Below are positions 3,609-62,919 of a DNA stretch of 64,000 bases, in pieces. Source of the DNA: a bacterium (lineage in GTDB: Bacteria; Patescibacteriota; Microgenomatia; Daviesbacterales; UBA10151); contig JAJYNN010000002.1 of the NCBI GenBank assembly GCA_021786315.1, positions 462,997-526,996 of the forward strand. Reading direction: 5' to 3'. The position numbers and the translations under genes are program-made. The notes under the pieces are model-generated. The model did not search any database. It saw only the letters and a program-made list of their open reading frames with translations, and was not told where the DNA came from. How positions within the stretch are numbered: position 1 is the stretch's first letter; each line of letters begins with the position of its first letter.

Positions 3609-3953
3609 TTATTTTGACTCGGAGATGACTTGCTTGAAGGCTTCGAGGTCGTGGGCGGCCAACTCAGCAAGCATTTTTCTGTTTAAGAGAATATTTTTCT
3701 CTTTCAGGGCAGCCATAAATTTGGAATAAGATAGGCCCTCGTTATTTAAGGCAATCCCCATTTGGGTAATCCAAAGTTTACGCATATCCCTTCTTCTTTG
3801 GCGGCGTCCGGCCAAGGCGTATTGACCAGCGTGCAAGCTGGCGGACTTTCCCTCTTTGATGAGCTTGCTGCGGCCACCTTGATAGCCCTTGGTAAGCTCG
3901 TGTAATTTTTTATGTTTTCTGTGTGCGGTCATGCCGCGTTTTACTCTAGCCAT
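3609..3953 (-). CDS. rplT: 50S ribosomal protein L20
   Basis: MARVKRGMTAHRKHKK...GQYALAGRRQRRR typical of L20. Confidence 0.9.
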   Translation of the reverse strand: MARVKRGMTAHRKHKKLHELTKGYQGGRSKLIKEGKSASLHAGQYALAGRRQRRRDMRKLWITQMGIALNNEGLSYSKFMAALKEKNILLNRKMLAELAAHDLEAFKQVISESK

Positions 3954-3957
3954 CTCT

Positions 3958-4026
3958 TGAATTTAGAATGCAGAATTTAGAATGCAGAATTAAATTCATA
4001 ATTCATTATTCTTAATTCCTAATTCG
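3958..4026. repeat. Imperfect tandem heptamer array (GAATTNN-type) in the rpmI-rplT intergenic region
   Basis: tgaatttagaatgcagaatttagaatgcagaattaaattcataattcattattcttaattcctaattcg. Confidence 0.6.
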
Positions 4027-9146: not shown

Positions 9147-9923
9147 TTAACTAAACCTGGAGACTGCAGCCTGGTGGGCTTGGTTTTCTAAAGTATCATC
9201 CAAAGGTTCAAGTTTGATCTCTTTTCCATATTTTACTTCCAGGGCTTTTTTCAGCAACCAATCAGCAAGTTTGGGGTTTTTAGGCAGGAGTGAGCCGTGC
9301 ATGTAGGTGCCAACAGCATTCTTGTGGATACAGCCTTCGCTTTTGTCTTCCCCATTATTCCCGTGTCCTTTAACAACTGTACCTAAAGGTTTTGCCCCAT
9401 CTTTAAGATAGGTTTTTCCGGAATGGTTCTCAAAGCCTACAAGTGAATTAGGAATTAAGAATTTGGAATTATGAATTTCTTCGTTTTGCATTCTGAATTC
9501 TGCACTCTGAATTCGGATAACTATATTCCCGATCATCCGGTCAAAGCTGGCTTTGGTATAGGCCGGGAATAACCCTACTCCCGGAAGTTTTGGGCCTTCA
9601 TGCGGCTGGTAATAATCCCCCAATAGCTGATACCCCCCACAAATAGCCAGTAGCGGCACTCCTCTTTCTGCCTCTTCTTTAATAACCTTACCCTTACCAC
9701 TTTGTCCCAGATCCTTGGCTACTAATTCTTGGGCCTGGTCCTGGCCTCCTCCGAAAAAGAAAATATCCACATCCCCTTTCTTGAGCTTATCTCCTACTGA
9801 AATATGCCTGATTTCTACTTCAATCCCCCTCCACTGGGCCCGTTTCGTAAGGGTAATAATATTCCCGGTATCACCATAGATGTTCATTAAATCTGAATAA
9901 AGATAACCAAGGGTAATTTTCAA
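9147..9923 (-). CDS. gatD: Lipid II isoglutaminyl synthase glutaminase subunit GatD (CobQ-type GATase), TTG start
   Basis: GATase triad context AICGGYQLLG; adjacent to murT; carries an in-frame heptamer-repeat insert (EIHNSKFLIPNS). Confidence 0.8.
   Translation of the reverse strand: MKITLGYLYSDLMNIYGDTGNIITLTKRAQWRGIEVEIRHISVGDKLKKGDVDIFFFGGGQDQAQELVAKDLGQSGKGKVIKEEAERGVPLLAICGGYQLLGDYYQPHEGPKLPGVGLFPAYTKASFDRMIGNIVIRIQSAEFRMQNEEIHNSKFLIPNSLVGFENHSGKTYLKDGAKPLGTVVKGHGNNGEDKSEGCIHKNAVGTYMHGSLLPKNPKLADWLLKKALEVKYGKEIKLEPLDDTLENQAHQAAVSRFS
9446..9512. repeat. Heptamer array inside gatD coding sequence (in-frame)
   Basis: ggaattaagaatttggaattatgaatttc ... attctgaattctgcactctgaattcgg. Confidence 0.6.
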
Positions 9924-10001: not shown

Positions 10002-11291
10002 TTACTTTTCCTCCTTCCAGTAGTATTGCTTGATGCCGGATTTAGCTAAGATGGATTGCAGTTTTAGGAGGGCTGTATATGTAGGAAGGATGAATAAACG
10101 GCCTTCCAGACCCTTTACAGAGGCGTGAAAAGCCACTTGCAGGTCCTTTTCTGTCTCTAATGTTTTGGGGTCAAATCCGGCATATTTAAGTCTTAAGGCT
10201 AGATCCTCAGCCCTGATCCCCGAACAAATTATTCTTAAATCTATATTCCTAAATCCTAAATCTTCGAAGTTGGTATCCCAAATCCAGGAAACATCGGTCC
10301 CGTCAGCCAGGTTGTCATTTAAAGCTAAGAGTAACCTGTCCTCCGGTTTAATCTGGTCTTGGATTGTCCGGATAACCTGAGTGGCTCCTGTGGGGTTTTT
10401 AATTAAGAAAATATAGCCTTCCTTGTTATCTTTCAGGTTGAGTTTCTCCACCCTGCCAAAGGCTGGGGAAAAGGATTCCAGGCCACTTTTAATGTTTCCC
10501 AGGCTAACTCCCAGCTCAGAAGCTACAGCAAAAGCAGCCAAAAAGTCATAAATATGGTAGGTTCCGGGTAAAGGAAGCGTAAAATTTTGGTTTTTGACCT
10601 TAAATTTAGTTATATCTAATCCCTGAGGCTGGATATTGGTGGCTTCCAAATCAAGGTCATTCTTTTTTCTCAGTTGAGCTCTCTTTTCCCCGGCAATCTT
10701 ATAATCCGTTACCCCAAAAGTCTTAACTTCCCCTTTGAAGCTCTTTTGAAGCTCAAGCAGGTTTTCATCATCTCCATTTAAGAAGATTTTTACACTTGGA
10801 TTGACTTGGGAGAGAGTTTTCCCCCATTTTTTGACTATAGTATCCACTTCTCCGTACCTGTCCAGTTGATCCCGGAAAACGTTTAGAAAAACGATAATGT
10901 CGGGGTTAATCTTGGGGACAACAATATTGAAGGCAGCCTCATCCAATTCCCAAATGGCCAAATCGACAGAATTATGAATTATGAATTTAGAATTATGAAT
11001 CAAAGAAGACGCAATGCCTCTTTCTAAGTTAGAGCCAGTTTCGTTTCTGATAACCTTGATGCCTTGAGCCCCGGCAAACTGAGCCAGCATCCTTGAGGTG
11101 GTGGTTTTGCCGTTGGTGCCGGTAATGACCACGGTTTTTGGGATTTGCCTGCCTAGTTCCGCTACCAGGTTTGGGTAAAGCTTGAGGGCATAATAGCCTG
11201 GCGCAGCGGAACCGCCACCAATTTTTAAAACCTGGGTAGTTTTATGGATCGTTTTACCTAAAGTTATCGCTGCCGTCTTTTTAAGATTCAT
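10002..11291 (-). CDS. murT: Lipid II isoglutaminyl synthase MurT (Mur ligase domain plus DUF1727)
   Basis: Mur ligase P-loop TGTNGKTTTS; C-terminal DUF1727-like region; carries an in-frame heptamer-repeat insert (LIHNSKFIIHNS). Confidence 0.8.
   Translation of the reverse strand: MNLKKTAAITLGKTIHKTTQVLKIGGGSAAPGYYALKLYPNLVAELGRQIPKTVVITGTNGKTTTSRMLAQFAGAQGIKVIRNETGSNLERGIASSLIHNSKFIIHNSVDLAIWELDEAAFNIVVPKINPDIIVFLNVFRDQLDRYGEVDTIVKKWGKTLSQVNPSVKIFLNGDDENLLELQKSFKGEVKTFGVTDYKIAGEKRAQLRKKNDLDLEATNIQPQGLDITKFKVKNQNFTLPLPGTYHIYDFLAAFAVASELGVSLGNIKSGLESFSPAFGRVEKLNLKDNKEGYIFLIKNPTGATQVIRTIQDQIKPEDRLLLALNDNLADGTDVSWIWDTNFEDLGFRNIDLRIICSGIRAEDLALRLKYAGFDPKTLETEKDLQVAFHASVKGLEGRLFILPTYTALLKLQSILAKSGIKQYYWKEEK
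10968..11002. repeat. Heptamer array inside murT coding sequence (in-frame)
   Basis: cagaattatgaattatgaatttagaattatgaatc. Confidence 0.6.
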
Positions 11292-12754: not shown

Positions 12755-12941
12755 GGAATGCTAAAGATATCAGAATAAATCACTTGTAGAGGGGTTGAGC
12801 TTGAAGATTTTTGGAGCGGGAGACGGGATGATCACTCCTCGCTGCGTTCGGAGTTGAACCTACTTAGCTCTGCGAGATGCGTATATTCCAAATGCGGGTC
12901 TTACTCACAAAAAATCAGCCACAAGGGCCGACATTTTTATG

Positions 12942-13013
12942 AGCGGGAGACGGGATTCGAACCCGCGACATCCTCGTTGGCAACGAGGCACTCTACCACT
13001 GAGTTACTCCCGC
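12942..13013 (-). tRNA. tRNA-Gly (anticodon GCC)
   Basis: RC reads GCGGGAGTAACTCAGTGGTAGAGTGCCTCGTTGCCAACGAGGATGTCGCGGGTTCGAATCCCGTCTCCCGCT. Confidence 0.85.
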
Positions 13014-13181
13014 GAACGTTAGTGAGCGGTGAGCACTTCCGCAGCCAATTTTTGGTTGGCGAGGAGTACTCCCACATTTTGGTGCCGCAGCCTGGAATAG
13101 GGCTACTCGCTAAAGCGAGATCCTGTTCCTGTCTGCTTCAAAATTTGTCTTTGCTGACACAAGGTCAGCACGACAAACTTG

Positions 13182-13254
13182 TGCCGCAGCCTGGAATCGA
13201 ACCCGGATAAGACGCTCTTCAGGCGCCCGCCTTGACCAACTTGGCTACTGCGGC
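13182..13254 (-). tRNA. tRNA-Phe (anticodon GAA)
   Basis: RC reads GCCGCAGTAGCCAAGTTGGTCAAGGCGGGCGCCTGAAGAGCGTC..CCGGGTTCGATTCCAGGCTGCGGCA; one G-A mismatch in the T-stem. Confidence 0.8.
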
Positions 13255-13362
13255 TAGTCTACTAGACGCCAGCAAACGAGGTGTTAAACTTTGTAAACAC
13301 CGAGTTTACTGCGACGATCAAAACTAACCAATTTTATCTAATTAACCTCTGTTATGCAATTG

Positions 13363-13435
13363 TGGGCACTAAGGGACTCGAACCCCTGACATCTACAGTG
13401 TAAATGTAGCGCTCTACCAACTGAGCTAAGTGCCC
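13363..13435 (-). tRNA. tRNA-Val (anticodon TAC)
   Basis: RC reads GGGCACTTAGCTCAGTTGGTAGAGCGCTACATTTACACTGTAGATGTCAGGGGTTCGAGTCCCTTAGTGCCCA. Confidence 0.85.
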
Positions 13436-13488
13436 TCGCTTTGCTCGGTCACTTGCGATAGTTCCGCTACGCGTGTAACTATCTAAAG

Positions 13489-13582
<94 letters not shown>

Positions 13583-13593
13583 TTGGTTGCTTG

Positions 13594-13676
13594 TGCCGAG
13601 GACAGGACTTGAACCTGCACGCCTTTTGGGCACTACCACCTCAAGGTAGCGTGTATACCAGTTTCACCACCTCGGC
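13594..13676 (-). tRNA. tRNA-Leu (anticodon GAG), long variable arm
   Basis: RC reads GCCGAGGTGGTGAAACTGGTATACACGCTACCTTGAGGTGGTAGT..GCAGGTTCAAGTCCTGTCCTCGGCA. Confidence 0.8.
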
Positions 13677-14607: not shown

Positions 14608-14742
14608 ACTTTTTGAGTTCTCCTATGAAAACCCTCCGGTTTCCCAGAGGGTTTTGAAAAAATAATTTCTTCAAACCAAAAATTATATTACCAAATTATT
14701 TGCCAAAGGCAAACAAGATCTTTGACGTAAGTCAAAGTAGAC

Positions 14743-15036
14743 TTACTTCTTTTTTGAACCACCCCATTTTTCCCAAGCTACCAAAAGTCCGGCCAAACCA
14801 ACCAGCAAATAAACAACCTTTTCTAACATAGAGCCAGTTCCAAAAACGCTGCTTACCAAATTAAGGCCCATAAGACCTACCAAGCCTGTGTTCAAAGCGC
14901 CGATAACCACAAGAGGTAAAGTAACAGATCTAAATGACTTCAACTTTATCACCCCCTCTCTGATTAAGTATATATCCAGTATTAGATAGATTTTTTCAGT
15001 TGTCAAATTTGGCTTTGAAAATGGTTCAGGGGTCAA
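14743..15036 (-). CDS. DUF378-family small membrane protein (true start probably internal)
   Basis: IGALNTGLVGLMGLNLV motif typical of DUF378. Confidence 0.5.
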   Translation of the reverse strand: MTPEPFSKPNLTTEKIYLILDIYLIREGVIKLKSFRSVTLPLVVIGALNTGLVGLMGLNLVSSVFGTGSMLEKVVYLLVGLAGLLVAWEKWGGSKKK

Positions 15037-15534: not shown

Positions 15535-15705
15535 AATTGGAGATTACACCTTCCACTAACTGGAATGTCAAGAGGTAAAATAGTGCTGTGGGACATGGAT
15601 TAGGGCTACTTTGACTTCGTCAAAGATCCTGTCAAGCTTCGCTTGATCGAACCCGCTTCCTTGTGCCAAGAGCGCGGATTCTCGGTTCAAAAGCACCAAA
15701 TACCA

Positions 15706-15739
15706 AAAATCCAGCCACAAAAGGACTGGATTTTTGCTA
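15706..15739 (-). terminator. Hairpin plus U-tract immediately 3' of tRNA-Gln (also reads as a hairpin plus T5 on the + strand)
   Basis: AAAAATCCAG..loop..CTGGATTTTT stem followed by a T-run. Confidence 0.5.
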
Positions 15740-21467: not shown

Positions 21468-21845
21468 ATGGAGGTTGACTACTTATTAGAGAATGTTATT
21501 ATTAATATAGTGAAACTTCTTTTTAACTGGTTAATTTCTGCTTTGGTAATCCTCTCTGTCCCCTATATTCTTCCGGGGGTGCATGTTCAAAGCTTTACTG
21601 TGGCACTGGTTGTGGCGTTGGTTTTGGGTATAATTAATGCTTTCCTGCGGCCTCTCCTTTTATTTTTAACCTTGCCTTTAAATATCCTGACCTTTGGTTT
21701 ATTTACCCTGGTAATTAACGCCGTATTAATTATGCTTACAGGATCGCTTGTTTCCGGGTTTGTGGTGGATAACTTTTGGTGGGCTTTGCTTTTTGGACTG
21801 GCGCTTTCTGTAATTAATACATTCCTGCGTAAGATTTCCCGCTAG
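21468..21845 (+). CDS. DUF360 (putative 4-TM holin-like) membrane protein
   Basis: Four hydrophobic helices; PYILPGV..INAFLRPLL pattern. Confidence 0.6.
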   Translation: MEVDYLLENVIINIVKLLFNWLISALVILSVPYILPGVHVQSFTVALVVALVLGIINAFLRPLLLFLTLPLNILTFGLFTLVINAVLIMLTGSLVSGFVVDNFWWALLFGLALSVINTFLRKISR

Positions 21846-24490
21846 GTCACAAAGGCCGGGTTCTTAATATAGTATTTATTATCCGTAATGTAGTTTGTGA
21901 TAACGTAGTCGGCGTTCATATTGGTTGTTAAGGTAAAGTCTGCCATCTTAAAGTCATCGTTAAAGAAAATTACCGCTTTGATGTTGGGCATGGTAGGGAT
22001 GTCTTCTGACAGGGTTTGTTCAAACCAAAGGTATTTTAAGCCTCCGGCGCTTGAGGATGAGGTCTCAGCCACCATTATCGGCTTATGGTAATTGGATAAA
22101 ATAGTATAAGTATCATAAGCCAGACTCTTGAAGGAGTTCCAGTAGGTTACCCCCGGATTAGAGGTTCCCCAGTTAAACCCGGAAAAACCCACCCAGTCAA
22201 CATACTGGTCTCCCGGATAGTATTTAACAATAGAATCTCTATTGCCGTCGGCATCTGTGGCATTGGGAGCCCAAATCCACATGACATTATTGGCATGCTC
22301 TTCCTGGAAAATATTGTAAACATGTATCCACATCTTGATGTAATCATCAGGCGTATTGCCATTTATGTCTCCCCAGGGGTACCAGTTACCGTTCATCTCG
22401 TGGGCAAAACGGAGGAAGAAAGGTTTACGGTAGGCAGCTGCTTCCCTTGCCCATTGGTGGATGTAGCTGTCGTATTGGCCACTGGCTATAGCTTTGGGGG
22501 AGTATTGGGTTTGCTCGGTTGAGCCCTTAACAGGATCACCTTTTGACGGATCCCAAGGCTCCCAGGTAATTACCGGTACAACATTTTGGTTAGATAAAGC
22601 ATTCATAAAATTCAAATCAAATTGTGGTTCGCTTCCCCATTCCTGGTAAAACATGACCAATGATGGTTTTTCTCCGGAAATTACCCCCACTTCCGGATCT
22701 TTTGGGTGGGTATTTAAGCTTGGCAGGTAATAACCATAATAGGCTCCATTTTCCGGAATGACCAGCTTCTGTTGCTTAATGGTATTGGCGAGGAACAAGT
22801 TTGGCGATCCTTCTGTAGCAAAAGTATAGATACTTGTACTGTTGGTAATTAGCAGAATCACGGCTAAAGCAAATGCCGGTTTGACAAGGACTTTTCCGGA
22901 GAATTTTACCCATCTGAATAACAAATCCAGAGGTTTAAAAATAAAGTCTTCTATTGGCTGTATATGGTAATTCTCCCGAAAGATTAGATAAAACCCTAAG
23001 GCCAGGATTGTGGTATCGAAAGTTGCCCAGAAATAATTAAAAAAACCGCCCAAGTAATGAGTTAAACTATGGGTGATACTGTAATAAAGCCCGATGGCTA
23101 AAACAGCCAGGATTACAAGTTGTACTCGGTAAACATTAAACACGTTTTCCTTTTGGTATTTTTTGATTGTGACAACAAAACTCGACCTCTTACCTAAAAT
23201 ACTGGAGACAAGGGCTCTGACAAAAACCGGGAAGGAAATAACATCCAGGACGATACTTTTTAACGGTTCCCGGAAAAGCATCCCGAACATGACAAAGTTA
23301 TAAATCAAATATGGGCCGTAAATTAGAAGCAGAAAATTTATGGTGTTTGGCTTGATTGGTGAAATGCCGAAGAACAGATACGGAATTGGAGCCAAAATTA
23401 AGATTAAATCCCTGAGGCCGATAAGGTAATATGTCGCGGCCACTAAATAGTGGAATTTTTGTTTTAAGGTTAAGGGTCCGAAAAGTATGTGTTTAAAGTA
23501 AGCCCTGGTGACATCAAAGTTGCCCTTTGACCAACGCTGCTGTTGGGAAAAATATGCCTTTAGGGATTCAGGAGCCATACCGTAAGCTAATACCTTGGGC
23601 ATGAAAACTCCCCTTTTCCCTTTCATATGCAATTCCAAAGAAGTTGCATAGTCCTCAGTGATAAACCTGGTGTCCATCCCTCCGACAGAATTCAAGGCCT
23701 CACGCCTGATCATAAAATTCGTACCGCACAAAAACAGTGCGTTATTGTAACCTGTTGCCGGGCAAACATGGTCAAAGAAAAATATCTGGTGGGCGGCTGC
23801 CCCTTTAGCCACCCATGATTGCTCATTTTGGTATCTTTGCGGACTTTGGACGAAGTCGATCTTTGGGTTTTTAAACGGTTTTGTCATCTCCAGTAAAAAT
23901 TCGTCCGTTGCTTTAAAGTCCGAATCAAAAACAACGTCTAAGGTATTGTGGGGGTCAGGGGTTTCAAGGGTTTTTAATGCATTATTTATATTCCCTGCCT
24001 TAAAACCTCCCGGTATTTGACGGGTGATGCATCTTACCCCCATGTTTTCCGCCAGTTGTTCAATTTCCTGCCAGTTGTCCTTATCGGCGACATATCCGTC
24101 GTTTAAAACTACAACCTGGGGTCTGTGTACGGGTTTAATTGTTTTGGTATAGGTGTCAGCGGCATTCTTGGCTCCCTGGATAGTGTTTCTGACGATATCA
24201 GTTGGTTCCCCACAAACGCAAATCAATAGATTAATCCGCAGGTTACGGTCATAATTAATATCTTCCCATTTGTCGTAATTGCGCGGCCAGAGATTATAAA
24301 ACATGCCGAAAAGATGAAGAATTGTATGGGATTCAGCCAAAAATACAATAATGCTGAAGATGGCAATAACAGGAGTGAGATTTATATATTGGATACGGAA
24401 GTAAACATAAAACGAAAGTAAGATAACCCCTAAAATTAGAACAATTTTCTTCCCCAGCTCACGTAAACCTTCCATTGGACTGCTCTCCAA
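21842..24490 (-). CDS. Fusion of a processive GT2 glycosyltransferase (cellulose-synthase-like, N-terminal) and a GH26-like glycoside hydrolase (C-terminal)
   Basis: GT2 motifs DGY, DSDF, QSPQRYQNE, QQQRWSKGN (QxxRW) and multiple TMs; C-terminal WEPWDPSKG ... FLRFAHEMNGNWYPWG ... VAETSS, GH26/clan GH-A like. Confidence 0.75.
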   Translation of the reverse strand: MESSPMEGLRELGKKIVLILGVILLSFYVYFRIQYINLTPVIAIFSIIVFLAESHTILHLFGMFYNLWPRNYDKWEDINYDRNLRINLLICVCGEPTDIVRNTIQGAKNAADTYTKTIKPVHRPQVVVLNDGYVADKDNWQEIEQLAENMGVRCITRQIPGGFKAGNINNALKTLETPDPHNTLDVVFDSDFKATDEFLLEMTKPFKNPKIDFVQSPQRYQNEQSWVAKGAAAHQIFFFDHVCPATGYNNALFLCGTNFMIRREALNSVGGMDTRFITEDYATSLELHMKGKRGVFMPKVLAYGMAPESLKAYFSQQQRWSKGNFDVTRAYFKHILFGPLTLKQKFHYLVAATYYLIGLRDLILILAPIPYLFFGISPIKPNTINFLLLIYGPYLIYNFVMFGMLFREPLKSIVLDVISFPVFVRALVSSILGKRSSFVVTIKKYQKENVFNVYRVQLVILAVLAIGLYYSITHSLTHYLGGFFNYFWATFDTTILALGFYLIFRENYHIQPIEDFIFKPLDLLFRWVKFSGKVLVKPAFALAVILLITNSTSIYTFATEGSPNLFLANTIKQQKLVIPENGAYYGYYLPSLNTHPKDPEVGVISGEKPSLVMFYQEWGSEPQFDLNFMNALSNQNVVPVITWEPWDPSKGDPVKGSTEQTQYSPKAIASGQYDSYIHQWAREAAAYRKPFFLRFAHEMNGNWYPWGDINGNTPDDYIKMWIHVYNIFQEEHANNVMWIWAPNATDADGNRDSIVKYYPGDQYVDWVGFSGFNWGTSNPGVTYWNSFKSLAYDTYTILSNYHKPIMVAETSSSSAGGLKYLWFEQTLSEDIPTMPNIKAVIFFNDDFKMADFTLTTNMNADYVITNYITDNKYYIKNPAFVT

Positions 24491-26228: not shown

Positions 26229-27449
26229 CTAGGGCATGTAAGTTTTAAATGCCTGCAGAGAAGTTGCCGAAGAATCGATGCGCCAGTCAGTTTCTTTATT
26301 TAAATCGAACCAGGTTATTTCAGAAACCTTAGGGAATAGGTTAGGTAGGGCGTTGGTAAACATATCTTTAACCCAAGCTGCCTTGTCTCCCCCTTGTTCA
26401 GCAGAAGCGGTTTCAGCGATATAGATTGGTTTGTTATATGTCCGGGTTAAGAAATTATAGGCGTTGGAAAAAACACCAGAGAAGCTTCTCCAACCTGAGC
26501 TGTTGGTGGTTCCGGAATTATAGCCATCAATACCGATAATATCTACGACATCATCCCCAGGGTAAAATTGGGAAGCAGTTGAGATATCCGTATAGGGCAC
26601 ATTGTCCGAGTTAATCGCCCACATCCAGGAAACGTTAGTTACGCCCTGGGCGCGGAACAGGTTTACGATATAGCGGTAAGCGGCCTTGTAATCATCCGGC
26701 CGGTTGCCCCAGGGGTACCAGTTGCCGTTCATTTCATGGCCAAAACGGATCACGACCGGACCGCCATAGCTTTTGACTGAGTTGGCAAAATTTATAAGGT
26801 AAGCATCCTGGCTTCCGGTTGGGATTGCTTTAAGGTAATCAGTTGATTGGTTCATGCCCTGAGACGGATCCCAAGGCTCCCAGGCAATAATCAGTTTCAT
26901 ATTCCTGGATTTGGCATAGGCAAGGTCGGATGAGCTTAGATCCCGGTAAGGTGAACCAAATTGCTTAAAGAAAGAAAGGTGACTGACCGGCTTACCCAGT
27001 TCTGATTCGACAGTGGTTACCCCGGTAGAAGTATTCCAGTCGTTAATAACCACTCCCATCTTAACGTTGGAAGTGACAGGCACTATTGTTGGCGCCGTGG
27101 TTGGGGTGGCAACCGGAGCGGAAGTTAGGGTAGGAGTCGCTGTACCAGATGAAGGTACTGATGTTGGAGCCACAGTGGGCTGAATGGAAGGGGCTACAGT
27201 CGGTGAACTGGATATGGTTGGGGATGGAGTTACACTGGGAGTAGACCCTGCGAACTTATCGTGGTTCTTGTTGCTATGAGTATTGGCAGCCAAAGCAACT
27301 TGGACCAAAGGGCTTAAGTTGCCAAGATTACCTTTCACGGCATAAGTATATCCTCCCAGGGCCAATAAGACTGTGGCCAGGATAACAGAGAGAAAGAGCC
27401 GTGGATTTTCCGAAAAAACTCTCCTGAGGAGAGCGGAGATTTTAGGCAT
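26229..27449 (-). CDS. Secreted/anchored GH26-like glycoside hydrolase with Pro/Thr/Ser-rich linker
   Basis: WEPWDPSQG ... IRFGHEMNGNWYPWG ... IYIAETAS; N-terminal TM; PT-rich linker. Confidence 0.7.
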   Translation of the reverse strand: MPKISALLRRVFSENPRLFLSVILATVLLALGGYTYAVKGNLGNLSPLVQVALAANTHSNKNHDKFAGSTPSVTPSPTISSSPTVAPSIQPTVAPTSVPSSGTATPTLTSAPVATPTTAPTIVPVTSNVKMGVVINDWNTSTGVTTVESELGKPVSHLSFFKQFGSPYRDLSSSDLAYAKSRNMKLIIAWEPWDPSQGMNQSTDYLKAIPTGSQDAYLINFANSVKSYGGPVVIRFGHEMNGNWYPWGNRPDDYKAAYRYIVNLFRAQGVTNVSWMWAINSDNVPYTDISTASQFYPGDDVVDIIGIDGYNSGTTNSSGWRSFSGVFSNAYNFLTRTYNKPIYIAETASAEQGGDKAAWVKDMFTNALPNLFPKVSEITWFDLNKETDWRIDSSATSLQAFKTYMP

Positions 27450-35622: not shown

Positions 35623-37640
35623 AAGATAAAATTTTAATCGTAATTTTGGGCTTCATTTTTACTGCCGTTTTTAGCTGGCCGTTTATTACTAAACTGCCGG
35701 CTTTCTCTTACGATCGGGGGGATTACCAGCTAACCGGCGGGGCGCTGTCTTATAACGAATATAGTATCCGCACCGGAAGGATTTTTAACCGCCAAGAATA
35801 CTTTAATGGTTACCAGTTTTATCCGCAGCCTGATACCTTAGTATATTCTGACCTGCGACTGGTTCCTTCCTTGATTTATTCTCCCATCTATTGGCTTACC
35901 CACAACTTTATTTTTTCCGTCAATACAACTACTTTTTTGACTTTTGTCCTAAGTTTTATTTCCGGTTTCTACTTTCTTTACTTTTTTACCAAACACAAAT
36001 TGGCCAGCATTGTTGGTGCCTTAGTTTTTACCTTCAACCCTTTAACCTACTCCCGTTTCCCGGAACACTTTGAGCTTCTGAATAAATACTTCCTGCCCCT
36101 GGTATTTCTCTTTGCCTTTAAATTTTTCACTAAGCCGAACTTTAAAAATGCCGTCTTTTTCTTTTTATTCCTGACCCTTAATGCTTTTTCGGCCACTTAC
36201 TTTCAGCTTTTTTCTTTCTTGATTCTGCCCGTTTTTGCCTTACCTTTTGTGGTCCAAAATTTCCGGCAAAAGCATTTTGAATATTTTGGCAATCTAATTA
36301 AGTTTAGTTTGGTTTTTATTATATTTATTCCGGTCTTTTGGTACTTTGACAGCGCTTATACCAACTTTTCCAGCCTGGAAAACTCCAGGAGAACAATTAC
36401 TGAAACCTCCTTTCTCTCTGCCCGACTGATCGATTACTTTGCCTCAACGCCAAATAATTTCTTATACGGGCCGTTTGTTAAAAGCATTGAGGAATTCCGC
36501 GCTCCCTTGGATCTGCAGGGGATCTACGGCAATTTTAATTACCAGGAACATACATTGTTCCTCAATATTATTCCGATGGTTTTGTTTATTCTTGGGGCAG
36601 GTGCGTGGTATCAAAGATTTAAGAGAAAAGAACTTCCTAAAACAGAGAAAACCTTATTTGTAAGTTTTTCTGTTGTTTTGGTTTCCACCTTTCTTCTTAG
36701 TTTCGGGCCTTATTTTGAGGGCTGGAACCTGAACGAGAGCAGCTTTCCTCTGCCCTACTATCTTCTCTATAAATTCATTCCTTTCCTGGAAGGCATCAGA
36801 GCTCCTACTAGAATCCTCTTTGTTTTTTACCTCCCCTTCTCCTTATTTACCGCCTATGGGGCCATCAAACTGTTAAGAAGCGGGAAAAGGAAAACAATGA
36901 TTATTTTTGGTGTAATCCTCGCCCTTTTATGGCTGGAAAATTTTACACCCGAACCTCAGGGTAAGTCATATGATACTCAATCCGCGGTTACTCCCCAGAT
37001 AGAATCGAGAATCGCTAAATTGGAGTTTTTACAAGACAAGAATACCCTGCATTTGCCTGTTATAGCACCTTCGGGGGATATAGAGAGTATCTATCTCCCT
37101 TGGGCTGCCGAAACCCACGAGAGGATTGTTAACGGCAACCGGGGCAGTTTCTTATCGGGCGAGCAGGGAGCGTTTTTAAAGGAGCTCAGTGAGAAACTGG
37201 ATGAAGATGAAATAAAAAAACTCCTCGCTTTAAAGGTCAATTATATTGTTTTCCATAAGGATCTTCTCGGAAAAGACTTTGGGGTTTACGGAAAATGGCA
37301 AAACCTGTACCAAAAAGGGGAAATTTATGAAGACAAGGAGATAATGGTGGTGGACTTATCGAAATACAATCTGGCTTTTACTATCTGTGATTTTAATAAG
37401 GATTTTGATGTCAGTGCAAAACAAGCCCAAATAAGAGAGGGCGGGCAAACTTTTTATGTTGTAGAGCTGAAGAATAAATCTGATTGTTACTACCCGGCAA
37501 TTTACCGCGATAAGTATAAAGAGGTTGATTTTTATATTAACCTGATTAAGCATATGGCTTTGATTAAACTCCCGCCGGTAATAGAACCAAACCAGACACT
37601 AACCTTTGCTGAAGTTTATAATAACTTAAGATGGAAATAG
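35619..37640 (+). CDS. Large polytopic membrane protein (YfhO/GT-C-like), putative glycosyltransferase
   Basis: ~13 TMs then a soluble C-terminal domain; operon overlap. Confidence 0.45.
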   Translation: MKDKILIVILGFIFTAVFSWPFITKLPAFSYDRGDYQLTGGALSYNEYSIRTGRIFNRQEYFNGYQFYPQPDTLVYSDLRLVPSLIYSPIYWLTHNFIFSVNTTTFLTFVLSFISGFYFLYFFTKHKLASIVGALVFTFNPLTYSRFPEHFELLNKYFLPLVFLFAFKFFTKPNFKNAVFFFLFLTLNAFSATYFQLFSFLILPVFALPFVVQNFRQKHFEYFGNLIKFSLVFIIFIPVFWYFDSAYTNFSSLENSRRTITETSFLSARLIDYFASTPNNFLYGPFVKSIEEFRAPLDLQGIYGNFNYQEHTLFLNIIPMVLFILGAGAWYQRFKRKELPKTEKTLFVSFSVVLVSTFLLSFGPYFEGWNLNESSFPLPYYLLYKFIPFLEGIRAPTRILFVFYLPFSLFTAYGAIKLLRSGKRKTMIIFGVILALLWLENFTPEPQGKSYDTQSAVTPQIESRIAKLEFLQDKNTLHLPVIAPSGDIESIYLPWAAETHERIVNGNRGSFLSGEQGAFLKELSEKLDEDEIKKLLALKVNYIVFHKDLLGKDFGVYGKWQNLYQKGEIYEDKEIMVVDLSKYNLAFTICDFNKDFDVSAKQAQIREGGQTFYVVELKNKSDCYYPAIYRDKYKEVDFYINLIKHMALIKLPPVIEPNQTLTFAEVYNNLRWK

Positions 37641-37647
37641 ACAAATT

Positions 37648-39138
37648 ATGAATTTAGAATTCAGAATTAAGAATTGGAATTGGTTATATTGGACTATACC
37701 GGTCTTTCTTTTTTTTGCTCAATGGATATTTACAGCTAACTCTATGTCTCAAATCCGCTACGAAGAACTGGCAGAATCTGTCCGTAACCCTTTTTGGCTC
37801 CAAAACCACACAATATATGACGGCGTTTCCAGTAATGTGGGGTGGTACGGAACTTTGCTGGTTATATATAAAATATTGGGGTTTACCTTAAATACAGCCA
37901 AGATCTACCGGTTAGTACTATCTTTAATATCGCTGTTTTCTTTAGCAGCATTGCTTAAAAAATTCCTTGGGGAGAAGTATGCCTGGATTCCACTTGTGAC
38001 AATTGGGTTGTCCCCCACTCTTTTGTATTTTAATACCTTACAAACTTCTTATGGCCTTGACCTGCAGTATTTCCCGATAACTTTATACCTTCTATCGACC
38101 ATAGACTTTAAGAAACTTTGGAATTCATTGTTCAAACAATCCTTAGTTTTTACAATTGCCATGATAGCCTGGATGTCCTATCCGACGTTCGTTTTCTATC
38201 TGCCGATTTTAGGGTTGGTATACCTTTATCAAATAAAAACACAGAAAGTCTATAGAAATTTCCTGCTCCTTGCCGGCGGTATCCTTGTTTCGTTTATATC
38301 ATTTGCCGCCCCTGTTGTTTTGGCTTTCCTTTACGTTAAGGATAAAAATCTATTGTTTTATGACCCCAAGGTCCAAAGCGGAATTTTCCGGGGAGCAGGA
38401 ACCCTGTATTTGAACTGGGGTAACTTTTGGCAAAACTTCTCAGGGACTTTGGGTGATCTCTTTAACTCGGCAGGAAGTTATTACTTTGAGGTATCTGTAG
38501 TGGATTTTTCCCACCTTCTTCCGCTTTTGGCAGTATTCTTCGTGGTTATTTTAGGAATTGTTTTAACGTTTCACCAGAAGAAAGCCCGCTTTCCGCTAAT
38601 CCTTATCTGGTTGGTGTTTATCACCAGTTTGATATTGGCAAACTTAACTTTTGATCCCAGCGGTAAGCCCGGTATCCGCCGCAGTACCAGTCTTCTGGCT
38701 AGCGTCTATGCCCTGTTTACAGTTTGCTGGTACTATACTGCGAAATGGAAAACTGAAAATTCCTCACTTAAAGTATTTGTTGTTGCCCTGCTCCTTATAA
38801 TCCCATTTCATCACCTATTGGCAATACCTTTTAACTTAGGAAACTTAACAGTGTCCAGCCCTTACCGGTACTCACTGCTCTTTGATGCAGCGGATACTCC
38901 GGCAAAGTCCTTAGATTTATTTATAGATGCCGCCCGGAAGCAAGACCTAAAACTGGGATGTAAAGACAAGGACGGGAAAGAAGCCACTTGCCGCTACGTC
39001 GAAGGCTATGCGGCAGTTGCTGGGTCTTGCCTGTGGAATAACTTAAACTGCCGTCCTATTTTAGGTTATGACGATAAAAAACAAGAGTTTATCCCCCTCA
39101 AGGTAGACCTTTGGGAAACCTACTACTGGAACCATTAA
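37648..39138 (+). CDS. Polytopic membrane protein, putative GT-C glycosyltransferase
   Basis: Polytopic; its N-terminus is encoded by a heptamer repeat (MNLEFRIKNWNW). Confidence 0.45.
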   Translation: MNLEFRIKNWNWLYWTIPVFLFFAQWIFTANSMSQIRYEELAESVRNPFWLQNHTIYDGVSSNVGWYGTLLVIYKILGFTLNTAKIYRLVLSLISLFSLAALLKKFLGEKYAWIPLVTIGLSPTLLYFNTLQTSYGLDLQYFPITLYLLSTIDFKKLWNSLFKQSLVFTIAMIAWMSYPTFVFYLPILGLVYLYQIKTQKVYRNFLLLAGGILVSFISFAAPVVLAFLYVKDKNLLFYDPKVQSGIFRGAGTLYLNWGNFWQNFSGTLGDLFNSAGSYYFEVSVVDFSHLLPLLAVFFVVILGIVLTFHQKKARFPLILIWLVFITSLILANLTFDPSGKPGIRRSTSLLASVYALFTVCWYYTAKWKTENSSLKVFVVALLLIIPFHHLLAIPFNLGNLTVSSPYRYSLLFDAADTPAKSLDLFIDAARKQDLKLGCKDKDGKEATCRYVEGYAAVAGSCLWNNLNCRPILGYDDKKQEFIPLKVDLWETYYWNH

Positions 39139-49133: not shown

Positions 49134-49230
49134 CAAATTCAAAATTTGGGGTTTGCCTCCTAATTTTGAATTTACTCCTGGGTAGTCAGAATCCTCTTTG
49201 GGGTTTACATAATTTTCGCAGAAAATTACA

Positions 49231-49312
49231 GGATCGTTTTGACGAAGTCAAAAGGTAGCCCATTAGACAATGCGTTGTCGCAGGATCGTTTTGACGAAGT
49301 CAAAAGGTAGCC
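49231..49312 (+). repeat. Two direct copies of a 32-nt palindrome-containing unit (CAGGATCGTTTTGACGAAGTCAAAAGGTAGCCC) separated by 18 nt, immediately followed by a mature-like copy of the tRNA-Arg 3' end
   Basis: The two copies are identical; the unit is the same motif family as those downstream of tRNA-Phe and tRNA-Gln. Confidence 0.7.
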
Positions 49313-49382
49313 CTAATCCCTCCGGGCGCGCCACCCTATCTCCTTGCTTCCCAATCCAAAGATAGATTACTATTAAACTGAT

Positions 49383-50597: not shown

Positions 50598-50705
50598 CGA
50601 GTGTTACGAGCGAGGTTAGTGAAGTGGCAGGACCAGTCTGAAAGACTAGCCTACCGCCGAACTAATCCCGCAATAGGAAGTATTTTACCAAATTTTACTT
50701 AAAAT

Positions 50706-52694: not shown

Positions 52695-54434
52695 ATGACA
52701 AATTACATTAAACTTATCTTTTTAATCTCATTCTTAATTCTGAATTCTATATTCTTAATTCGGCCTGCACAGGCTGTTGTTGATCCCCTATCCACCCCTA
52801 ACAATAAATTTGGGGTCCACATTATTACCGGCAGCCCCGACGAGGCTTCCCCTGCCGCCCAGATGGTAAACTCCTCCGGCGGAGACTGGGGCTATATTAC
52901 GGTTTTAATTGAAAGTAAAAATAGGAATCACGATCAATGGCAAGCCTTTTTTAATGATTTAAGACGCCGACACTTAATCCCTCTGGTAAGAATTGCTACC
53001 GAGCCTGAGGGAAATTATTGGAAAATTCCTTATAACGGTGAAGAACAAGCCTGGGCAGACTTCCTGGACAGCCTGGTTTGGCCCACCAAGAACCGTTATG
53101 TCATTATCTATAACGAGCCCAACCAGGGCCAGGAATGGGCTGGTAAAGTGGATCCGGCCTCTTATGCCCAGGTTTTAGATAAAACAATCACCGCTTTAAA
53201 GAATAAAAATCCCGATTTTTTTGTCCTCAATGCCGGACTTGATGCATCTGCCCCCGATAAATACCCCAGCTACGCTGATGAGACCACATTCTTAAGCCAA
53301 ATGGAGGCTGCAGTCCCGGGGATTTTTAATAAGCTGGATGGCTGGGTTTCCCATTCCTACCCCAACCCCGGCTTTGCCGGTTCCCCTGATGCCTCCGGAC
53401 GCGGGACAGTCAGGACTTGGGCTTGGGAGTTAAATTACCTGAAAAATTTAGGTGTAAATAAAACTCTCCCGGTGTTTATTACCGAAACAGGCTGGAAACA
53501 TGCTGAGGGGCTGGATTACGATAAATCCTTACCCAATGCCGATACAGTCGCCGATTATCTTAAGGATGCTTTTACCAATGCCTGGAATAGCAGCCAAATC
53601 GTGGCTGTTACCCCATTCCTGCTCAACTACCAACAGGCTCCTTTTGACCATTTCTCTTTTAAGAAGCTGACAGGAGAGCCGCAAAACCTGAAGATCCTTG
53701 GCGCTTCCTACCCGGATTATTACCCGCCATACCAAGCTATGATGGATCTGCCGAAGGTAGCCGGCCACCCTTTTCAGGAAAACAAAGCTGCTCTAGTAAA
53801 AGGCACTATTTACCCCTCAATTGTGGCCGGGGAAAGCTACACCATTCCCTTAACCTTTAAAAATACAGGGCAATCAATTTGGGAGGATGGTGAACCACTT
53901 GAGCTCAGGGTATTATCCGGAGGTGATGATTTTGGAATTCAATCCATTCAGCCTGCCATTGCCCAAAAAGTAGAACCCGGACAAAACGCTATCTTTAATG
54001 TAAATCTTAAAGCTCCCCAAGGCGGAGATTATCAAATTACCCTACAGCTATTTCACGGAGGCAAAGCTTTTGACCAAAACCCGTTTGTTTTCAATACCAA
54101 GGTTAAATCCCCGGTGATTTTACAGGTTAAAACTTCCCTTTGGGGCAAGAAAAATTCTGCCGGAAGTTATCTTTTAACCATCCTCAATAACGCTTTTAAG
54201 AGCAGTGTCGAGGTAACCATAGATGACCAGGGAATATCCAAACCTTTGGAATCACGCTATCTTTTGCCGGATTATCCTTTTACCTTTACCCTCCACAAAC
54301 CCTTCTATAAACCTAAGTCGATCAATGTTCAGGTTGTTTCCGGTATCAACCAGTTAAATTTTGGGACTTTAGAGCCTGACTTCTTATCAGCGATTTTAAA
54401 TCCCAAAGAGTTTTGGGATTTGCTTCCGTTTTAG
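52695..54434 (+). CDS. Secreted clan GH-A (GH5-like) glycoside hydrolase with C-terminal beta-sandwich domains
   Basis: Signal peptide; IIYNEPNQG (NEP acid/base) and VFITETGW (nucleophile) motifs; its signal-peptide region is encoded by a heptamer repeat. Confidence 0.55.
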   Translation: MTNYIKLIFLISFLILNSIFLIRPAQAVVDPLSTPNNKFGVHIITGSPDEASPAAQMVNSSGGDWGYITVLIESKNRNHDQWQAFFNDLRRRHLIPLVRIATEPEGNYWKIPYNGEEQAWADFLDSLVWPTKNRYVIIYNEPNQGQEWAGKVDPASYAQVLDKTITALKNKNPDFFVLNAGLDASAPDKYPSYADETTFLSQMEAAVPGIFNKLDGWVSHSYPNPGFAGSPDASGRGTVRTWAWELNYLKNLGVNKTLPVFITETGWKHAEGLDYDKSLPNADTVADYLKDAFTNAWNSSQIVAVTPFLLNYQQAPFDHFSFKKLTGEPQNLKILGASYPDYYPPYQAMMDLPKVAGHPFQENKAALVKGTIYPSIVAGESYTIPLTFKNTGQSIWEDGEPLELRVLSGGDDFGIQSIQPAIAQKVEPGQNAIFNVNLKAPQGGDYQITLQLFHGGKAFDQNPFVFNTKVKSPVILQVKTSLWGKKNSAGSYLLTILNNAFKSSVEVTIDDQGISKPLESRYLLPDYPFTFTLHKPFYKPKSINVQVVSGINQLNFGTLEPDFLSAILNPKEFWDLLPF

Positions 54435-54638: not shown

Positions 54639-54698
54639 TCGTGGTGGCTGTAGCTCAGCGGTAGGCTAGTCTTTCAGACTGGTCCTGCCACTTCACTA
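54639..54698 (+). repeat. 26-nt copy of the tRNA-His 5' end (tcG-1 plus acceptor plus D-arm to GCGGTAG) fused to a 34-nt element GCTAGTCTTTCAGACTGGTCCTGCCACTTCACTA, 14 nt upstream of the real tRNA-His
   Basis: Exact identity of 54639..54664 with 54709..54734; the 34-nt element recurs in inverted orientation next to tRNA-Gly(TCC). Confidence 0.7.
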
Positions 54699-56575: not shown

Positions 56576-56995
56576 ATGGCTACTTTCTATCAAGATTCCA
56601 ACAATAGTGTTGTCGCCATCATGACAGAAGGCGATTATAAGCGAATGCTCGAGCGACGTGCCCTAGTTGACGAGACAGTCAAAAAAGGTTTGCCGCGACC
56701 ACAGTTGCCGCCGGTTACACCAATCTTTACTTTCTCATCTCCCGACCACCCTTCGTTCTTGTTTATGACTGGTAGTATCAACCTGATGAGAAAGCTACTG
56801 CACGGTCATAGCGTTATCCGAAGTGGTATCTGGGTGCCGTTTAGTAACGGCAGTGAGTGGAGCCTCAACGAGGAAGAAGCACGCTACGAGCGACAGTTTA
56901 GGACAAGTCTTGACCAAGCAATCGAAGCATTTGGACTGATGAAGTCCCAAGATTCAGCCGACAAGGTTGAGTCGACCATCGGTAGTCGTAGCTAG
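56576..56995 (+). CDS. Hypothetical protein (cassette gene 1)
   Basis: ORF with strong RBS; GC-richer than the genome background. Confidence 0.4.
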   Translation: MATFYQDSNNSVVAIMTEGDYKRMLERRALVDETVKKGLPRPQLPPVTPIFTFSSPDHPSFLFMTGSINLMRKLLHGHSVIRSGIWVPFSNGSEWSLNEEEARYERQFRTSLDQAIEAFGLMKSQDSADKVESTIGSRS

Positions 56996-57791: not shown

Positions 57792-57827
57792 CAGAAAACC
57801 AGTTCGCAACTTAAGACTGTAACCGTG

Positions 57828-62311: not shown

Positions 62312-62919
62312 CTCCTTTATCTAAAAGACATTCTAGAGCTTATAGTTAAAAAAGGAGTGAGCTACATGTAAGAAAAGATTATGATTGCAAAGTAATCTCA
62401 AGTTTTGACCATAACTGCTTCAAATTGGATTTGTTATTTGGGGTGAACTATTATCCGGTTTGACTATGGATGAAGCCAAAGTCGGCAGAGCAAAGAAAAC
62501 CAAAAAAGTAATAATCATAAAAATTAAGAGTCCAACTAAAAACCCAATTTCAAATCCTTGTGTATCAGCCGCTATCATTGGTGGAAATCCGGGGTCGGTT
62601 TTTACATCTGGTGTATCATCTTGAAGCGGGGCGTCCATACAAATTTGTGAAAATTGTCAAACTGCCCCTTTTCACGGCTGTGCCTGTAACAGCGTTAAAA
62701 AGTATGAGTTGTGGAGTTATAGGGCTACCTTCGGCTTCGCCGAACGATCCTGTAATTTCTCTCCGCCAAAAGCGGATCGAAATTATTGACCTATTGCCTA
62801 TAATCCCCGCAGCTCTAACCTTTTGTGGCAGTAACTTTTTGAGAGTCATCTTCGTTCCTTTCAACCGCAATATTAGTCCTTTTTGTTGAAAGAATTACGA
62901 GGGGTGTGTAATAAAAATG

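Follow-up and report, generated by a model that had tools for sequence, protein, structure and literature searches.

Direct copies of tRNA gene ends beside a covarying hairpin module in a Candidate Phyla Radiation genome

Introduction

Displaced tRNA fragments that mark insertions are of a well-known general kind: when an island integrates into a tRNA gene, the regenerated target gene and the displaced fragment mark its ends (PMC4383910). Here we describe a 64,000-nucleotide stretch of contig JAJYNN010000002.1 (assembly GCA_021786315.1, positions 462,997 to 526,996 of the forward strand; hereafter the window, with positions counted from its first letter) in which the 3' end of the tRNA-Phe gene is repeated a short distance downstream, next to a small hairpin module. 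The closest homologues of its UTP-glucose-1-phosphate uridylyltransferase carry the names Candidatus Daviesbacteria or Microgenomates, which makes the source organism a member of the Candidate Phyla Radiation (CPR). We tentatively read the tRNA-Phe copy as the far repeat of a direct pair that arose when a small non-coding DNA inserted at the 3' end of the gene, in an insertion like those at attachment (att) sites and carried out by a non-autonomous cassette. We rate the chances of this reading at slightly under even; under it, the tRNA-Phe event would be one of many such insertions in this lineage.

The integrase sublocation classes that Williams set out in 2002 are said to include repeats that run from the T-loop to the tRNA 3' end. 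Genomic islands and integrative elements in tRNA genes (tyrosine-integrase att sites; the Islander principle) resemble the loci described here in having an intact gene with a displaced fragment in direct orientation, a repeat from the T-loop to the 3' end, a gene end replaced by insert-side sequence, empty sites in relatives, some cargo (a toxin-antitoxin pair) and tandem accretion. They are unlike our loci in that here no integrase lies in or near the inserts, the inserts of the window are non-coding and only 82-180 bp long, one structured end-module serves at least seven tRNA species, and mirror-image events at tRNA 5' ends have a module of their own.

CRISPR-associated transposons (CASTs) home to tRNA genes through delocalized CRISPR RNAs (crRNAs) (PMC11656645). 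Like these crRNAs and the omega RNAs of TnpB, our loci combine a hairpin scaffold with a 3' segment of about 17-19 nucleotides (nt) that equals a tRNA gene end, near that gene and at the far end of the insert. Unlike them, they come without genes for Cas12k, Cascade, TnsABC, TniQ or TnpB, without transposon ends and without a 5-bp target duplication, and the duplications also occur without the scaffold. Integron attC cassettes and Xer pdif modules are likewise small and recombinase-less, some with toxin-antitoxin genes; each of them ends in a folded site whose palindromic centre varies between conserved flanks, and they accumulate at a fixed platform. That platform, however, is attI or dif rather than a tRNA gene end, our loci have no recognisable R/L core boxes or XerC/D arms, and attC and Xer recombination make no target duplication, whereas 16-22 nt are duplicated here.

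Repetitive extragenic palindromes (REP), their mosaic elements (BIME) and miniature inverted-repeat transposable elements (MITEs) are also short dispersed palindromes that lie after genes or terminators, with invariant flanks that include GTAG, compensating stems and, as in a contig described below (L138), an assembly break. Here, in contrast, the inserts lack terminal inverted repeats, the GTAG stands on the 3' side of the hairpin, the junction at tRNA nt 59 is strict, and no RAYT transposase was identified. Finally, retroviral primer-binding sites, the 18-nt tRNA fragments tRF-3a and the complementary DNAs (cDNAs) of the Mauriceville plasmid are matched by a copied segment of exactly nt 59-76 with CCA in four of our loci. 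Primer-binding sites are complementary to the tRNA, whereas our copies are in tRNA sense; there is no reverse transcriptase, a tRNA-His copy includes leader nucleotides and CCA is not universal. Compared with all of these systems, the miniature recombinase-less inserts, the covarying end-modules (M/X1, X2 and A below, all absent from Rfam), the strict nt 59 junction and the mirror-image 5' events appear to be new.

Results and Discussion

The tRNA-Phe gene and its displaced 3' end

Genes are densely packed in the window, a piece of bacterial chromosome that has a GC content of about 42% and contains 13 tRNA genes (ARAGORN; Rfam tRNA model). Copies of tRNA ends were located by short-word BLAST of each tRNA against the window. 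At tRNA-Phe, the last 17 nt of the gene recur without a mismatch 83 nt downstream of it, and the locus has the following features.

13181..13254, reverse strand: tRNA-Phe(GAA) gene (ARAGORN; Rfam tRNA 58.2 bits), ending ...GCGGCAC and then AAG, so that CCA is not encoded
13181-13197, reverse strand: proximal repeat, the last 17 nt of tRNA-Phe, ATTCCAGGCTGCGGCAC
13140..13177, reverse strand: spacer hairpin TTTGTCGTGCTGAC-CTTG-TGTCAGCAAAGACAAA, then TTTT, with the look of a weak terminator (no call by the terminator scan)
13098..13126, reverse strand: module M (hairpin P3 of the longer module X1), ACAGGATC-TCGC-TTTA-GCGA-GTAGCCCTA; covariance model 27.9 bits, E 1.7e-5
13080..13098, reverse strand: distal copy (tail) of the tRNA-Phe 3' end, with ATTCCAGGCTGCGGCAC at 13082-13098; 17/17, E 2.4e-4 in 64 kb
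13034..13046, reverse strand: third, partial copy of the tRNA-Phe end with gene-proximal flank, GGCTGCGG(-CAC)AAGTG

The gene ends ...GGGTTCGATTCCAGGCTGCGGCAC and runs on into AAGTTTG. The tail continues CAAAATG, and its CA (13080-13081) completes a CCA at 13080-13082; counted as tRNA nt 59-76, the tail is TTCCAGGCTGCGGCACCA (13080-13097). Immediately 5' of it stands ACAGGATCTCGCTTTAGCGAGTAGCCCTA (13098-13126), and X1 is truncated on its 5' side at this locus (GAAGCAGACAGGA at about 13127-13139). A preliminary description of this DNA, made by reading the letters, had reported the 17-nt copy, the CCA on the copy, the AAG on the gene and the adjoining hairpin motif, and all four lie where it had placed them. 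The third, partial copy suggests nesting or an older event, and the tRNA-Phe locus of one relative (L128) has an analogous third copy, GGCACAAATTCTT. The Leu-Leu-Val-Phe-Gly cluster to which the gene belongs has a single predicted promoter (13715-13687) and a single terminator (12932-12914), so the module and the tail lie inside the polycistronic spacer between tRNA-Phe and tRNA-Gly.

A covarying module beside tRNA ends

The pattern CAGGAT-N8-24-TAGCCC has five matches in the window against 0.17 expected, an enrichment of about 30-fold, and none of 100 shuffles reached five. The five sites are at the tRNA-Phe, tRNA-Gln and tRNA-Arg loci (two at the last) and at an orphan position, 62722-62752. 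A covariance model built from three copies recovered all five, together with a diverged sixth copy at 14710-14749 and one further copy each in four other Microgenomates assemblies, L124, L128/L130, L131 and L132. These belong to the related sequences with which the window was compared (L119, L124, L128 with its duplicate L130, L131, L132 and L137). The nearest relatives, L119 and L137, have only about 80% protein identity to the window, so the exact boundaries of insertions are not alignable.

Across 10 copies from five sources, every one of the 99 cells of the P3 stem is a standard pair, and 5 of the 10 pairs change on both sides. The covariation score was reached by 0 of 500 shuffles and controls with a slid partner strand dropped to 25-64% paired, in an alignment whose fitting to the covariance model favours the structure. 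The differing stems can also be read straight from the sequence (TCGC/GCGA, TTTGAC/GTCAAA, TTCGGC/GCCGAA, TTCACC/GGTGAA and TTTTGC/GCAAAA). No G.U pair occurs in the 99 cells, so P3 gives no information on the strand, nor on whether the fold acts as RNA or as DNA. The M sequence of the window Arg locus is identical to that of L128 at 33 of 33 positions. The shuffles, the covariation and exact repeats of 16-26 nt at 6 of the 13 tRNA genes rule out a chance origin. The preliminary description was right that the module recurs at tRNA-Gln and tRNA-Arg with compensatory stems, and right to call it a conserved small module that goes with tRNA genes; coding genes do not account for it. One correction is that the end copy at tRNA-Gln has one mismatch and reads CAC rather than CCA.

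The motif first noticed, M, makes up only the 3' hairpin of X1, a longer module about 60-110 nt in length. From 5' to 3', its parts are a -10-like RAGAAT, the variable hairpin P1 (with ...AGGAAGC at its end), GGTTCRAT-P2-ACAGGATC with P2 likewise variable, P3 and GGTAGCCCTA. The conserved RAGAAT lies 5-9 nt upstream of P1 in most copies, and a consensus scan called no promoter for X1 at three window loci. GGUUC and GGAUC can pair as the base of a long P2 with two G.U pairs, a predicted pairing that is possible only in the sense RNA. All M copies end ...CCCTA, and the sequence that follows starts at tRNA nt 59. The remaining window copies are as follows.

15601-15683, reverse strand: full X1 at tRNA-Gln, GAGAAT, P1, GGTTCGAT-P2-ACAGGATC-P3-GTAGCCCTA; 43.6 bits
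15583-15600, reverse strand: tRNA-Gln tail ATCCATGTCCCACAGCAC, nt 59-74 with one mismatch, CAC instead of CCA
49187..49333, forward strand: X1 at tRNA-Arg(TCT) including the tail, with tandem M copies at 49228-49261 and 49280-49315 and the 19-nt ATTAGACAATGCGTTGTCG between them
49316-49333, forward strand: tRNA-Arg tail ATCCCTCCGGGCGCGCCA, nt 59-76 with CCA
62720..62820, reverse strand: orphan X1 downstream of a dksA-like gene; 64 bits
14699..14745, forward strand: diverged orphan, hairpin TTTGCCAAAGGCAAA and then CAAGATC-TTTGAC-GTAA-GTCAAA-GTAGACTTA; 23.7 bits, E 2.7e-4

The tRNA-Gln gene has its own promoter and terminator (15704-15736), with X1 beyond the terminator. At tRNA-Arg, the sequence that follows the first tandem M (49228-49280 including ATTAGACAATGCGTTGTCG) matches no window tRNA. 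For the tail of the orphan X1, TATAACTCCACAACTCATAC, the window has no other match; this tail pairs with the 5' part of its own module. The diverged orphan has no adjoining tRNA, lies at the 3' end of an open reading frame (ORF) resembling DUF378, and is the sole source of compensatory change in the outer AGG:CCU helix.

X1 matches no described RNA family in Rfam 15. Only the 13 window tRNAs reached the gathering score, and permissive searches returned nothing but terminator-like stems for the tRNA-Gln and L124 modules and no match for the orphan copy; the tRNA model misses X1 plus tail. A scan of one genome per species with a stringent pattern found the module in two genomes, both of Microgenomates type, the other five matches having no hairpin; an equally stringent metagenome scan found three distinct module loci plus L130. 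These 2 and 4 true loci are lower bounds on the distribution of M, which among the scanned sets was seen only in Microgenomates genomes and contigs. A phage or plasmid attP origin was rejected, as scans of viral contigs gave chance-like matches for M and none for X2 or A. Contigs of the same species from Logan are only about 1 kb long, and one of them ends inside M: in L138 (1-30) the short-read assembly breaks within the hairpin after the GGATC flank, upstream of a MerR gene, which is consistent with M being a multi-copy genome repeat.

Boundaries of the copies and the encoded CCA

A terminal duplicate is found within 20-181 nt of 6 of the 13 window tRNA genes, always in direct orientation.

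Phe: 3' copy, 17/17, downstream
Arg-tct: 3' copy, 17/17, downstream
Gln-ttg: 3' copy, 16/17, downstream
Gly-gcc: 3' copy, 16/16, downstream (12812-12829, reverse strand; nt 59-74 plus CA)
His: 5' copy, 26/26 with 5 leader nt included, upstream
Gly-tcc: 5' copy, 20/21, upstream
12830-12889, reverse strand: module X2, GGAATATACGCATCTCGCAGAGCTAAGTAGGTTCAAC-hairpin-GTGATC, preceding the Gly-gcc copy

The Gly-gcc copy is downstream of the operon terminator (12914-12932). Module X2 has the form ...ATCTCGCAGAGCTAAGTAGGTTCAAC-hairpin-GTGATC and does not contain the CAGGATC/GTAGCCC motif; its 5' motif ATCTCGCAGAGCTAAGYAGGTTC is also present at the tRNA-Phe of L128 (777-850, reverse strand), before the 3'-end copy there.

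In nine loci the 3' copies start at nt 59, or at nt 58 in those where it is ambiguous to which side the final A of M belongs. The first letters are ATCC in Gln, Arg and Glu, TTCC in Phe and GTCC in Asp, and the X2 tails and a tail without a module in L137 start at the same nucleotide. Identity between gene and tail stops at C74 in most loci and 1-3 nt further on in L124 Glu and L128 Phe. The repeat is 16-19 nt long at loci with M or an X module and 13 and 22 nt elsewhere, being fixed by tRNA position and not by length. Four of the nine loci with matching tails (window Phe, Arg and Gly-gcc; L131 Gln-ctg) have exactly nt 59-76 with CCA. Other tails end in AC (window Gln), ACAC (L124 Glu, where the first A matches the gene), CTAA (L137 Gln) or, at L128 Phe, CAAA from the flank of the gene itself, and the L132 Gly-ccc repeat extends 10 nt into the gene flank. 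All 13 window tRNA genes have C at position 74, and only Val-gac and His encode the full CCA. Seven of them read N73-CA (five CAA and two CAT), whether an insert is present or absent.

The nt 59-76 boundary with CCA is what a retro-copy would produce. A reverse transcriptase would copy a mature, CCA-ended tRNA as far as a block at modified A58 and switch template to the 3' end of an X1 RNA (...GGUAGCCCUA), and the cDNA would recombine beside the cognate gene. The four exact loci carry a CCA that their own genes do not encode (given C74, CA is expected by chance at 1/16 per locus), the constant ...CCCTA/nt 59 junction fits a template switch onto a defined RNA 3' end, and the 5' copies described below stop in the D-loop, as 5' tRNA fragments do. 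A precedent exists in the Mauriceville plasmid of Neurospora, which forms hybrid tRNA-plasmid cDNAs that integrate at a tRNA gene. However, neither the window nor the related loci contain a reverse transcriptase, the tRNA-His copy holds 5 leader nucleotides, and the tails of window Gln and L124 Glu read CAC, that of L137 Gln reads CTAA, and those of L128 Phe and L132 Gly-ccc carry flanking sequence of their genes. Moreover, a single crossover with a circular cDNA would place CCA on the proximal copy rather than on the distal one, and the Gly-gcc CCA is native in relatives, which makes an RNA origin unnecessary there. We regard this as the least probable of the explanations considered here. The preliminary description had offered a retro-type copy as one of its two options, and of that option the nt 59-76 span of tails survives, while the leader nucleotides, the tails without CCA and the distal position of the CCA speak against it.

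Other identities were tried and rejected. A minihelix formed by the tail pairing back onto the insert gave no consistent signal. If X1 were a tRNA fragment split in the T-loop, the 5 nt before TTCRAT should pair with the T-stem strand of the tail, and they do so no more than chance would allow, at 12 of 24 variable positions with about 9 expected; a T-arm made of GGTTCRAT and the tail shows nothing beyond the invariant GG:CC and fits only the tRNA-Leu-tag loci of relatives. A miniature element of the IS200/IS605 kind inserted after TTCRAT misfits the junction positions at tRNA-Phe. No conserved core of a self-cleaving ribozyme, group II intron domain V, Xer/dif site or attC was seen by eye, and none was matched in Rfam. 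Split or permuted tRNA genes of the archaeal type were rejected in view of the complete canonical gene at every locus.

Copies of tRNA 5' ends and module A

Upstream of two window tRNA genes stand copies that cover the tRNA from its 5' end into the D-loop, as far as nt 22, and both copies have one and the same module, A, behind them.

54639-54664, forward strand: tRNA-His copy, leader nt -5 to nt 22; 26/26
54665-54698, forward strand: module A at tRNA-His, GCTAGTCTTTCAGACTGGTCCTGCCACTTCACTA, 15 nt before the duplicated stretch and 20 nt before the gene (54714)
50651-50671, reverse strand: tRNA-Gly(TCC) copy, nt 1-21/22; 20/21
50617-50650, reverse strand: module A at tRNA-Gly(TCC), the identical 34 nt, 18 nt before the gene

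The hairpin of module A is AGGCUAGUC-UUUCA-GACUGGUCCU. By eye, A is approximately an inverted form of M (GGCTAG-hairpin-GGTCCTG versus CAGGATC-hairpin-GTAGCC), and the two are partly complementary. No window tRNA has both 5'-type and 3'-type fragments.

Empty and occupied sites in relatives

The preliminary description had proposed looking for empty sites in relatives, and tRNA-Gly-gcc provides them. In L119 and L137 this gene is uninterrupted, with a native CCA (...CCCGCTCCA) and no insert. In the window it reads CCCGCTC and then ATAAAA, followed by a 111-bp insert that ends in X2 and then by ATCCCGTCTCCCGCTC and CAAAAA. Conversely, the tRNA-Leu-tag site is empty in the window and occupied in L119 and L128. 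Downstream of that gene (L119 15084-15214, L128 7144-7240), GGAGGTTCRA and TCCTCTCATCCGCAC are kept in both relatives on either side of different inserts; these conserved flanks could form a T-arm-like helix and a short acceptor-like helix, GGAU(G):(C)AUCC.

The occupants of a given site vary among relatives. After tRNA-Gln there is X1 in the window, a 212-amino-acid (aa) ORF without a Pfam match plus a 16-nt repeat and no M in L137, and a HEPN gene with no repeat in L119. At tRNA-Phe, the X1 of L119 is degenerate, its P3 is a variant and the tail has decayed (11/17); L128 has X2 and a tail of 19 nt that takes in the AAA flank of the gene; and L137 shares only the AAGTTT flank, followed there by the 5' part of a pseudo-tRNA-Gly, then a GIY-YIG ORF and then the genuine tRNA-Gly. 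In L132, a 22-nt repeat (tRNA-Gly-ccc nt 65-76 plus 10 nt of flank) stands on both sides of an AbiEii/AbiEi toxin-antitoxin cassette, and tRNA-Asp is followed by a DUF1653 ORF and then by X1, whose Asp tail is shortened. In relatives, gene and copy can lie 0.76-1 kb apart, with one or two ORFs between them. The content of these segments differs by locus, as it does for the non-coding inserts of the window. Three further arrangements were noted, two of them with small free-standing endonuclease genes in or next to the tRNA cluster. In L137 (8489-9590) the GIY-YIG ORF overlaps the tRNA-Gly 5' end and an HNH ORF lies between tRNA-Val and tRNA-Phe; in L119 (8597-9557) tRNA-Gln is flanked by GIY-YIG and HEPN genes; and the Leu-Leu-Val-Phe-Gly cluster is inverted relative to the uridylyltransferase gene in L119 (10894-11530) as compared with the window (12941-13676), with a breakpoint 5 nt from the tRNA-Gly CCA end.

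The geometry of an intact gene with a displaced fragment is found at the six window loci and at six or more in relatives. Judged from these comparisons of sequence, tRNA ends in this lineage are recurrent insertion hot spots, with M/X1, X2 and A as the conserved junction modules of many inserts.

How the inserts may have arisen

In the reading that we tentatively prefer, non-autonomous cassettes would enter tRNA genes by att-type recombination at either of two sublocations, from the T-loop to the 3' end or from the D-loop to the 5' end, with a recombinase encoded elsewhere acting in trans. The cassette would supply the new tRNA end as far as C74, in most cases together with a terminator, and X1/M would be the junction arm on the cassette side, either a folded recombination site or a protein-binding hairpin kept by selection. 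Repeated integration and decay could then leave nested fragments and remove the encoded CCA, in at least tRNA-Gly-gcc. This retains part of two earlier proposals. That the copy is an att-type scar agrees with the intact gene and its displaced 3' fragment in direct orientation, and less well with inserts of 82-180 bp and no integrase in 64 kb; that an ancestral CCA-encoding flank was replaced holds for Gly-gcc, where L119 and L137 encode CCA, and is doubtful for Phe.

Several results weigh against the cassette reading. The Pfam search found no integrase, transposase, reverse transcriptase, Cas, TnpB or homing-endonuclease domain among the approximately 70 ORFs of the window, so that neither the tyrosine or serine integrase nor the reverse transcriptase suggested earlier is encoded there; Pfam scans of ORFs likewise found no integrase in or near the inserts of L124, L128, L132 and L137, nor did L124 or L128 show any recombinase next to the module. 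One module type stands beside at least seven tRNA species, so a sequence-specific integrase would need many cassette lineages with matching cores. Three of the 10 M copies have no adjoining matching tRNA. The window inserts have nothing in common except the module, their left parts being unrelated apart from generic terminator features, and a comparison of the left end with the reverse complement of the right end in eight inserts gave no significant terminal inverted repeats, which led us to reject a MITE or other transposon with inverted ends. An ancestral CCA does not explain the CCA of the Phe tail, since the tRNA-Phe genes of three relatives lack CCA and the AAGTTT flank is common to the window and L137. 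Finally, the Leu-tag tail TCCTCTCATCCGCAC is identical in L119 and L128 (15/15) while the inserts and the acceptor stems of the genes differ, which suggests that this tail is element-borne or itself under selection.

The missing recombinase would be accounted for if none were dedicated to the process. In that case incoming or ectopic DNA would be anchored on the conserved tRNA gene by homologous recombination and its far end joined illegitimately at microhomology in the T-loop (A-A/T-T-C-C) or the D-loop (GGTAG), and M/X would be a dispersed REP-like palindrome that ends ...CCCTA beside the microhomology and is re-joined to the local tRNA end. The junctions do coincide with the two stretches that are best conserved among tRNA genes, and the repeats of 13, 16-19 and 22 nt, which sometimes extend into the flank, the orphan M copies away from tRNAs, the all-Watson-Crick stems expected of a palindrome acting at the DNA level and the inversion of the tRNA cluster relative to the uridylyltransferase gene in L119 all agree with it. 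At the L128 Leu-tag locus, the acceptor GCCGGGA of the gene against the tail allele CATCCGC (closest to the L119 gene) fits replacement of the whole gene by donor DNA. The precision of the events, with starts at nt 59/58 in nine loci and ends mostly at C74, is nevertheless hard to obtain from microhomology alone, the CCA enrichment of tails and the strong conservation of M are left unexplained, and the mechanism would be borrowed by analogy from other bacteria. We consider this explanation unlikely, although it ranks next after the cassettes.

The architecture of X1 also raises the question of a small guide-type RNA, with a scaffold of about 60-110 nt and an 18-nt 3' guide (nt 59-76). An RNA-guided protein would use it, in the manner of CAST crRNAs or TnpB omega RNAs, to bring cassettes to sites beside tRNA genes or to attack the DNA of those genes in some way, and would take the T-loop TTCR immediately 5' of the target for its protospacer-adjacent or target-adjacent motif (PAM/TAM). 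Conserved flanks, a covarying hairpin and a variable segment of 17-19 nt after 9-10 nt give X1 a repeat/scaffold arrangement, and the Arg locus, the only one with two repeats, reads repeat, 19 nt, repeat, 18 nt. The tails are single-stranded, with no consistent pairing to the insert, and all begin directly after TTCG, TTCA or TCCG plus A58. The -10-like RAGAAT precedes P1 in most X1 copies, the 15/15 conservation of the Leu-tag tail contrasts with its diverged surroundings, and X1 plus tail stands at the tRNA-distal end of cargo-bearing loci, which is where the homing crRNA of type V-K CASTs is found. However, the window and the related loci contain no cas, tnpB, iscB or Tn7-like genes and no transposon ends. 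Inserts of the X2 type and inserts with no module (L137 Gln, L132 Gly-ccc) carry the duplications although M is absent, which makes the scaffold dispensable for duplication. Decay relative to the tRNA has affected some tails where the module was kept (11/17 at L119 Phe), zero G.U in 99 stem cells is unusual for an RNA, and the promoter scan made no call at three window loci. A guide RNA is in our judgement still less probable than recombinase-free joining. A broader version, in which X1 and A would be scaffolds of a new kind of RNA-guided or fragment-capturing CPR system and the 18-22-nt tRNA-end tags (nt 59-76 with CCA; nt 1-22) programmable addresses, taken from tRNA fragments and not produced by duplication of DNA, for cassette homing or for action on tRNA genes or tRNAs, is slightly more doubtful again.

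If the cassette reading is true, recombinase-less mini-cassettes that use tRNA ends through a shared folded module would offer very small CPR genomes a compact route for adding genes. Toxin-antitoxin pairs, HEPN genes and other small ORFs occur at the same tRNA-end sites, and repeated end replacement could explain both the loss of encoded CCA and the rearrangement of tRNA clusters. A covarying, lineage-restricted module that is absent from Rfam is also a searchable marker for the responsible enzyme. If the tails were instead functional guides or captured tRNA fragments, they would represent a new RNA-addressed mechanism.

Other features of the window

By Pfam, the ORFs of the window are of housekeeping type and include both PheRS subunits (alpha and beta), ThrRS, IF3, L20 and MurT/GatD, along with UTP-glucose-1-phosphate uridylyltransferase, SodA, a sigma factor, sortases, DinB and many glycosyltransferases. 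On the forward strand at 56576-59616 there are five successive ORFs of about 130-160 aa without a Pfam match. Repeated upstream and intergenic segments in this region (57139/57893 and 57246/57996, with 82-84% identity) suggest that they are a family of small proteins which arose by tandem duplication. The AT-rich motif GAATTTAGAAT(G/T)CAGAAT recurs at several gene boundaries (3947-3993, 9433-9479, 10977-11003 and 37638-37674) and also at 9481-9516 and 52728-52763. Two genes on the reverse strand (21842-24490 and 26229-27449) have near-identical stretches (22371-22413/26707-26749 and 22545-22577/26863-26895) in their glycosyl-hydrolase family 26 (GH26) domains, the pair representing a recent paralogous duplication or gene conversion.

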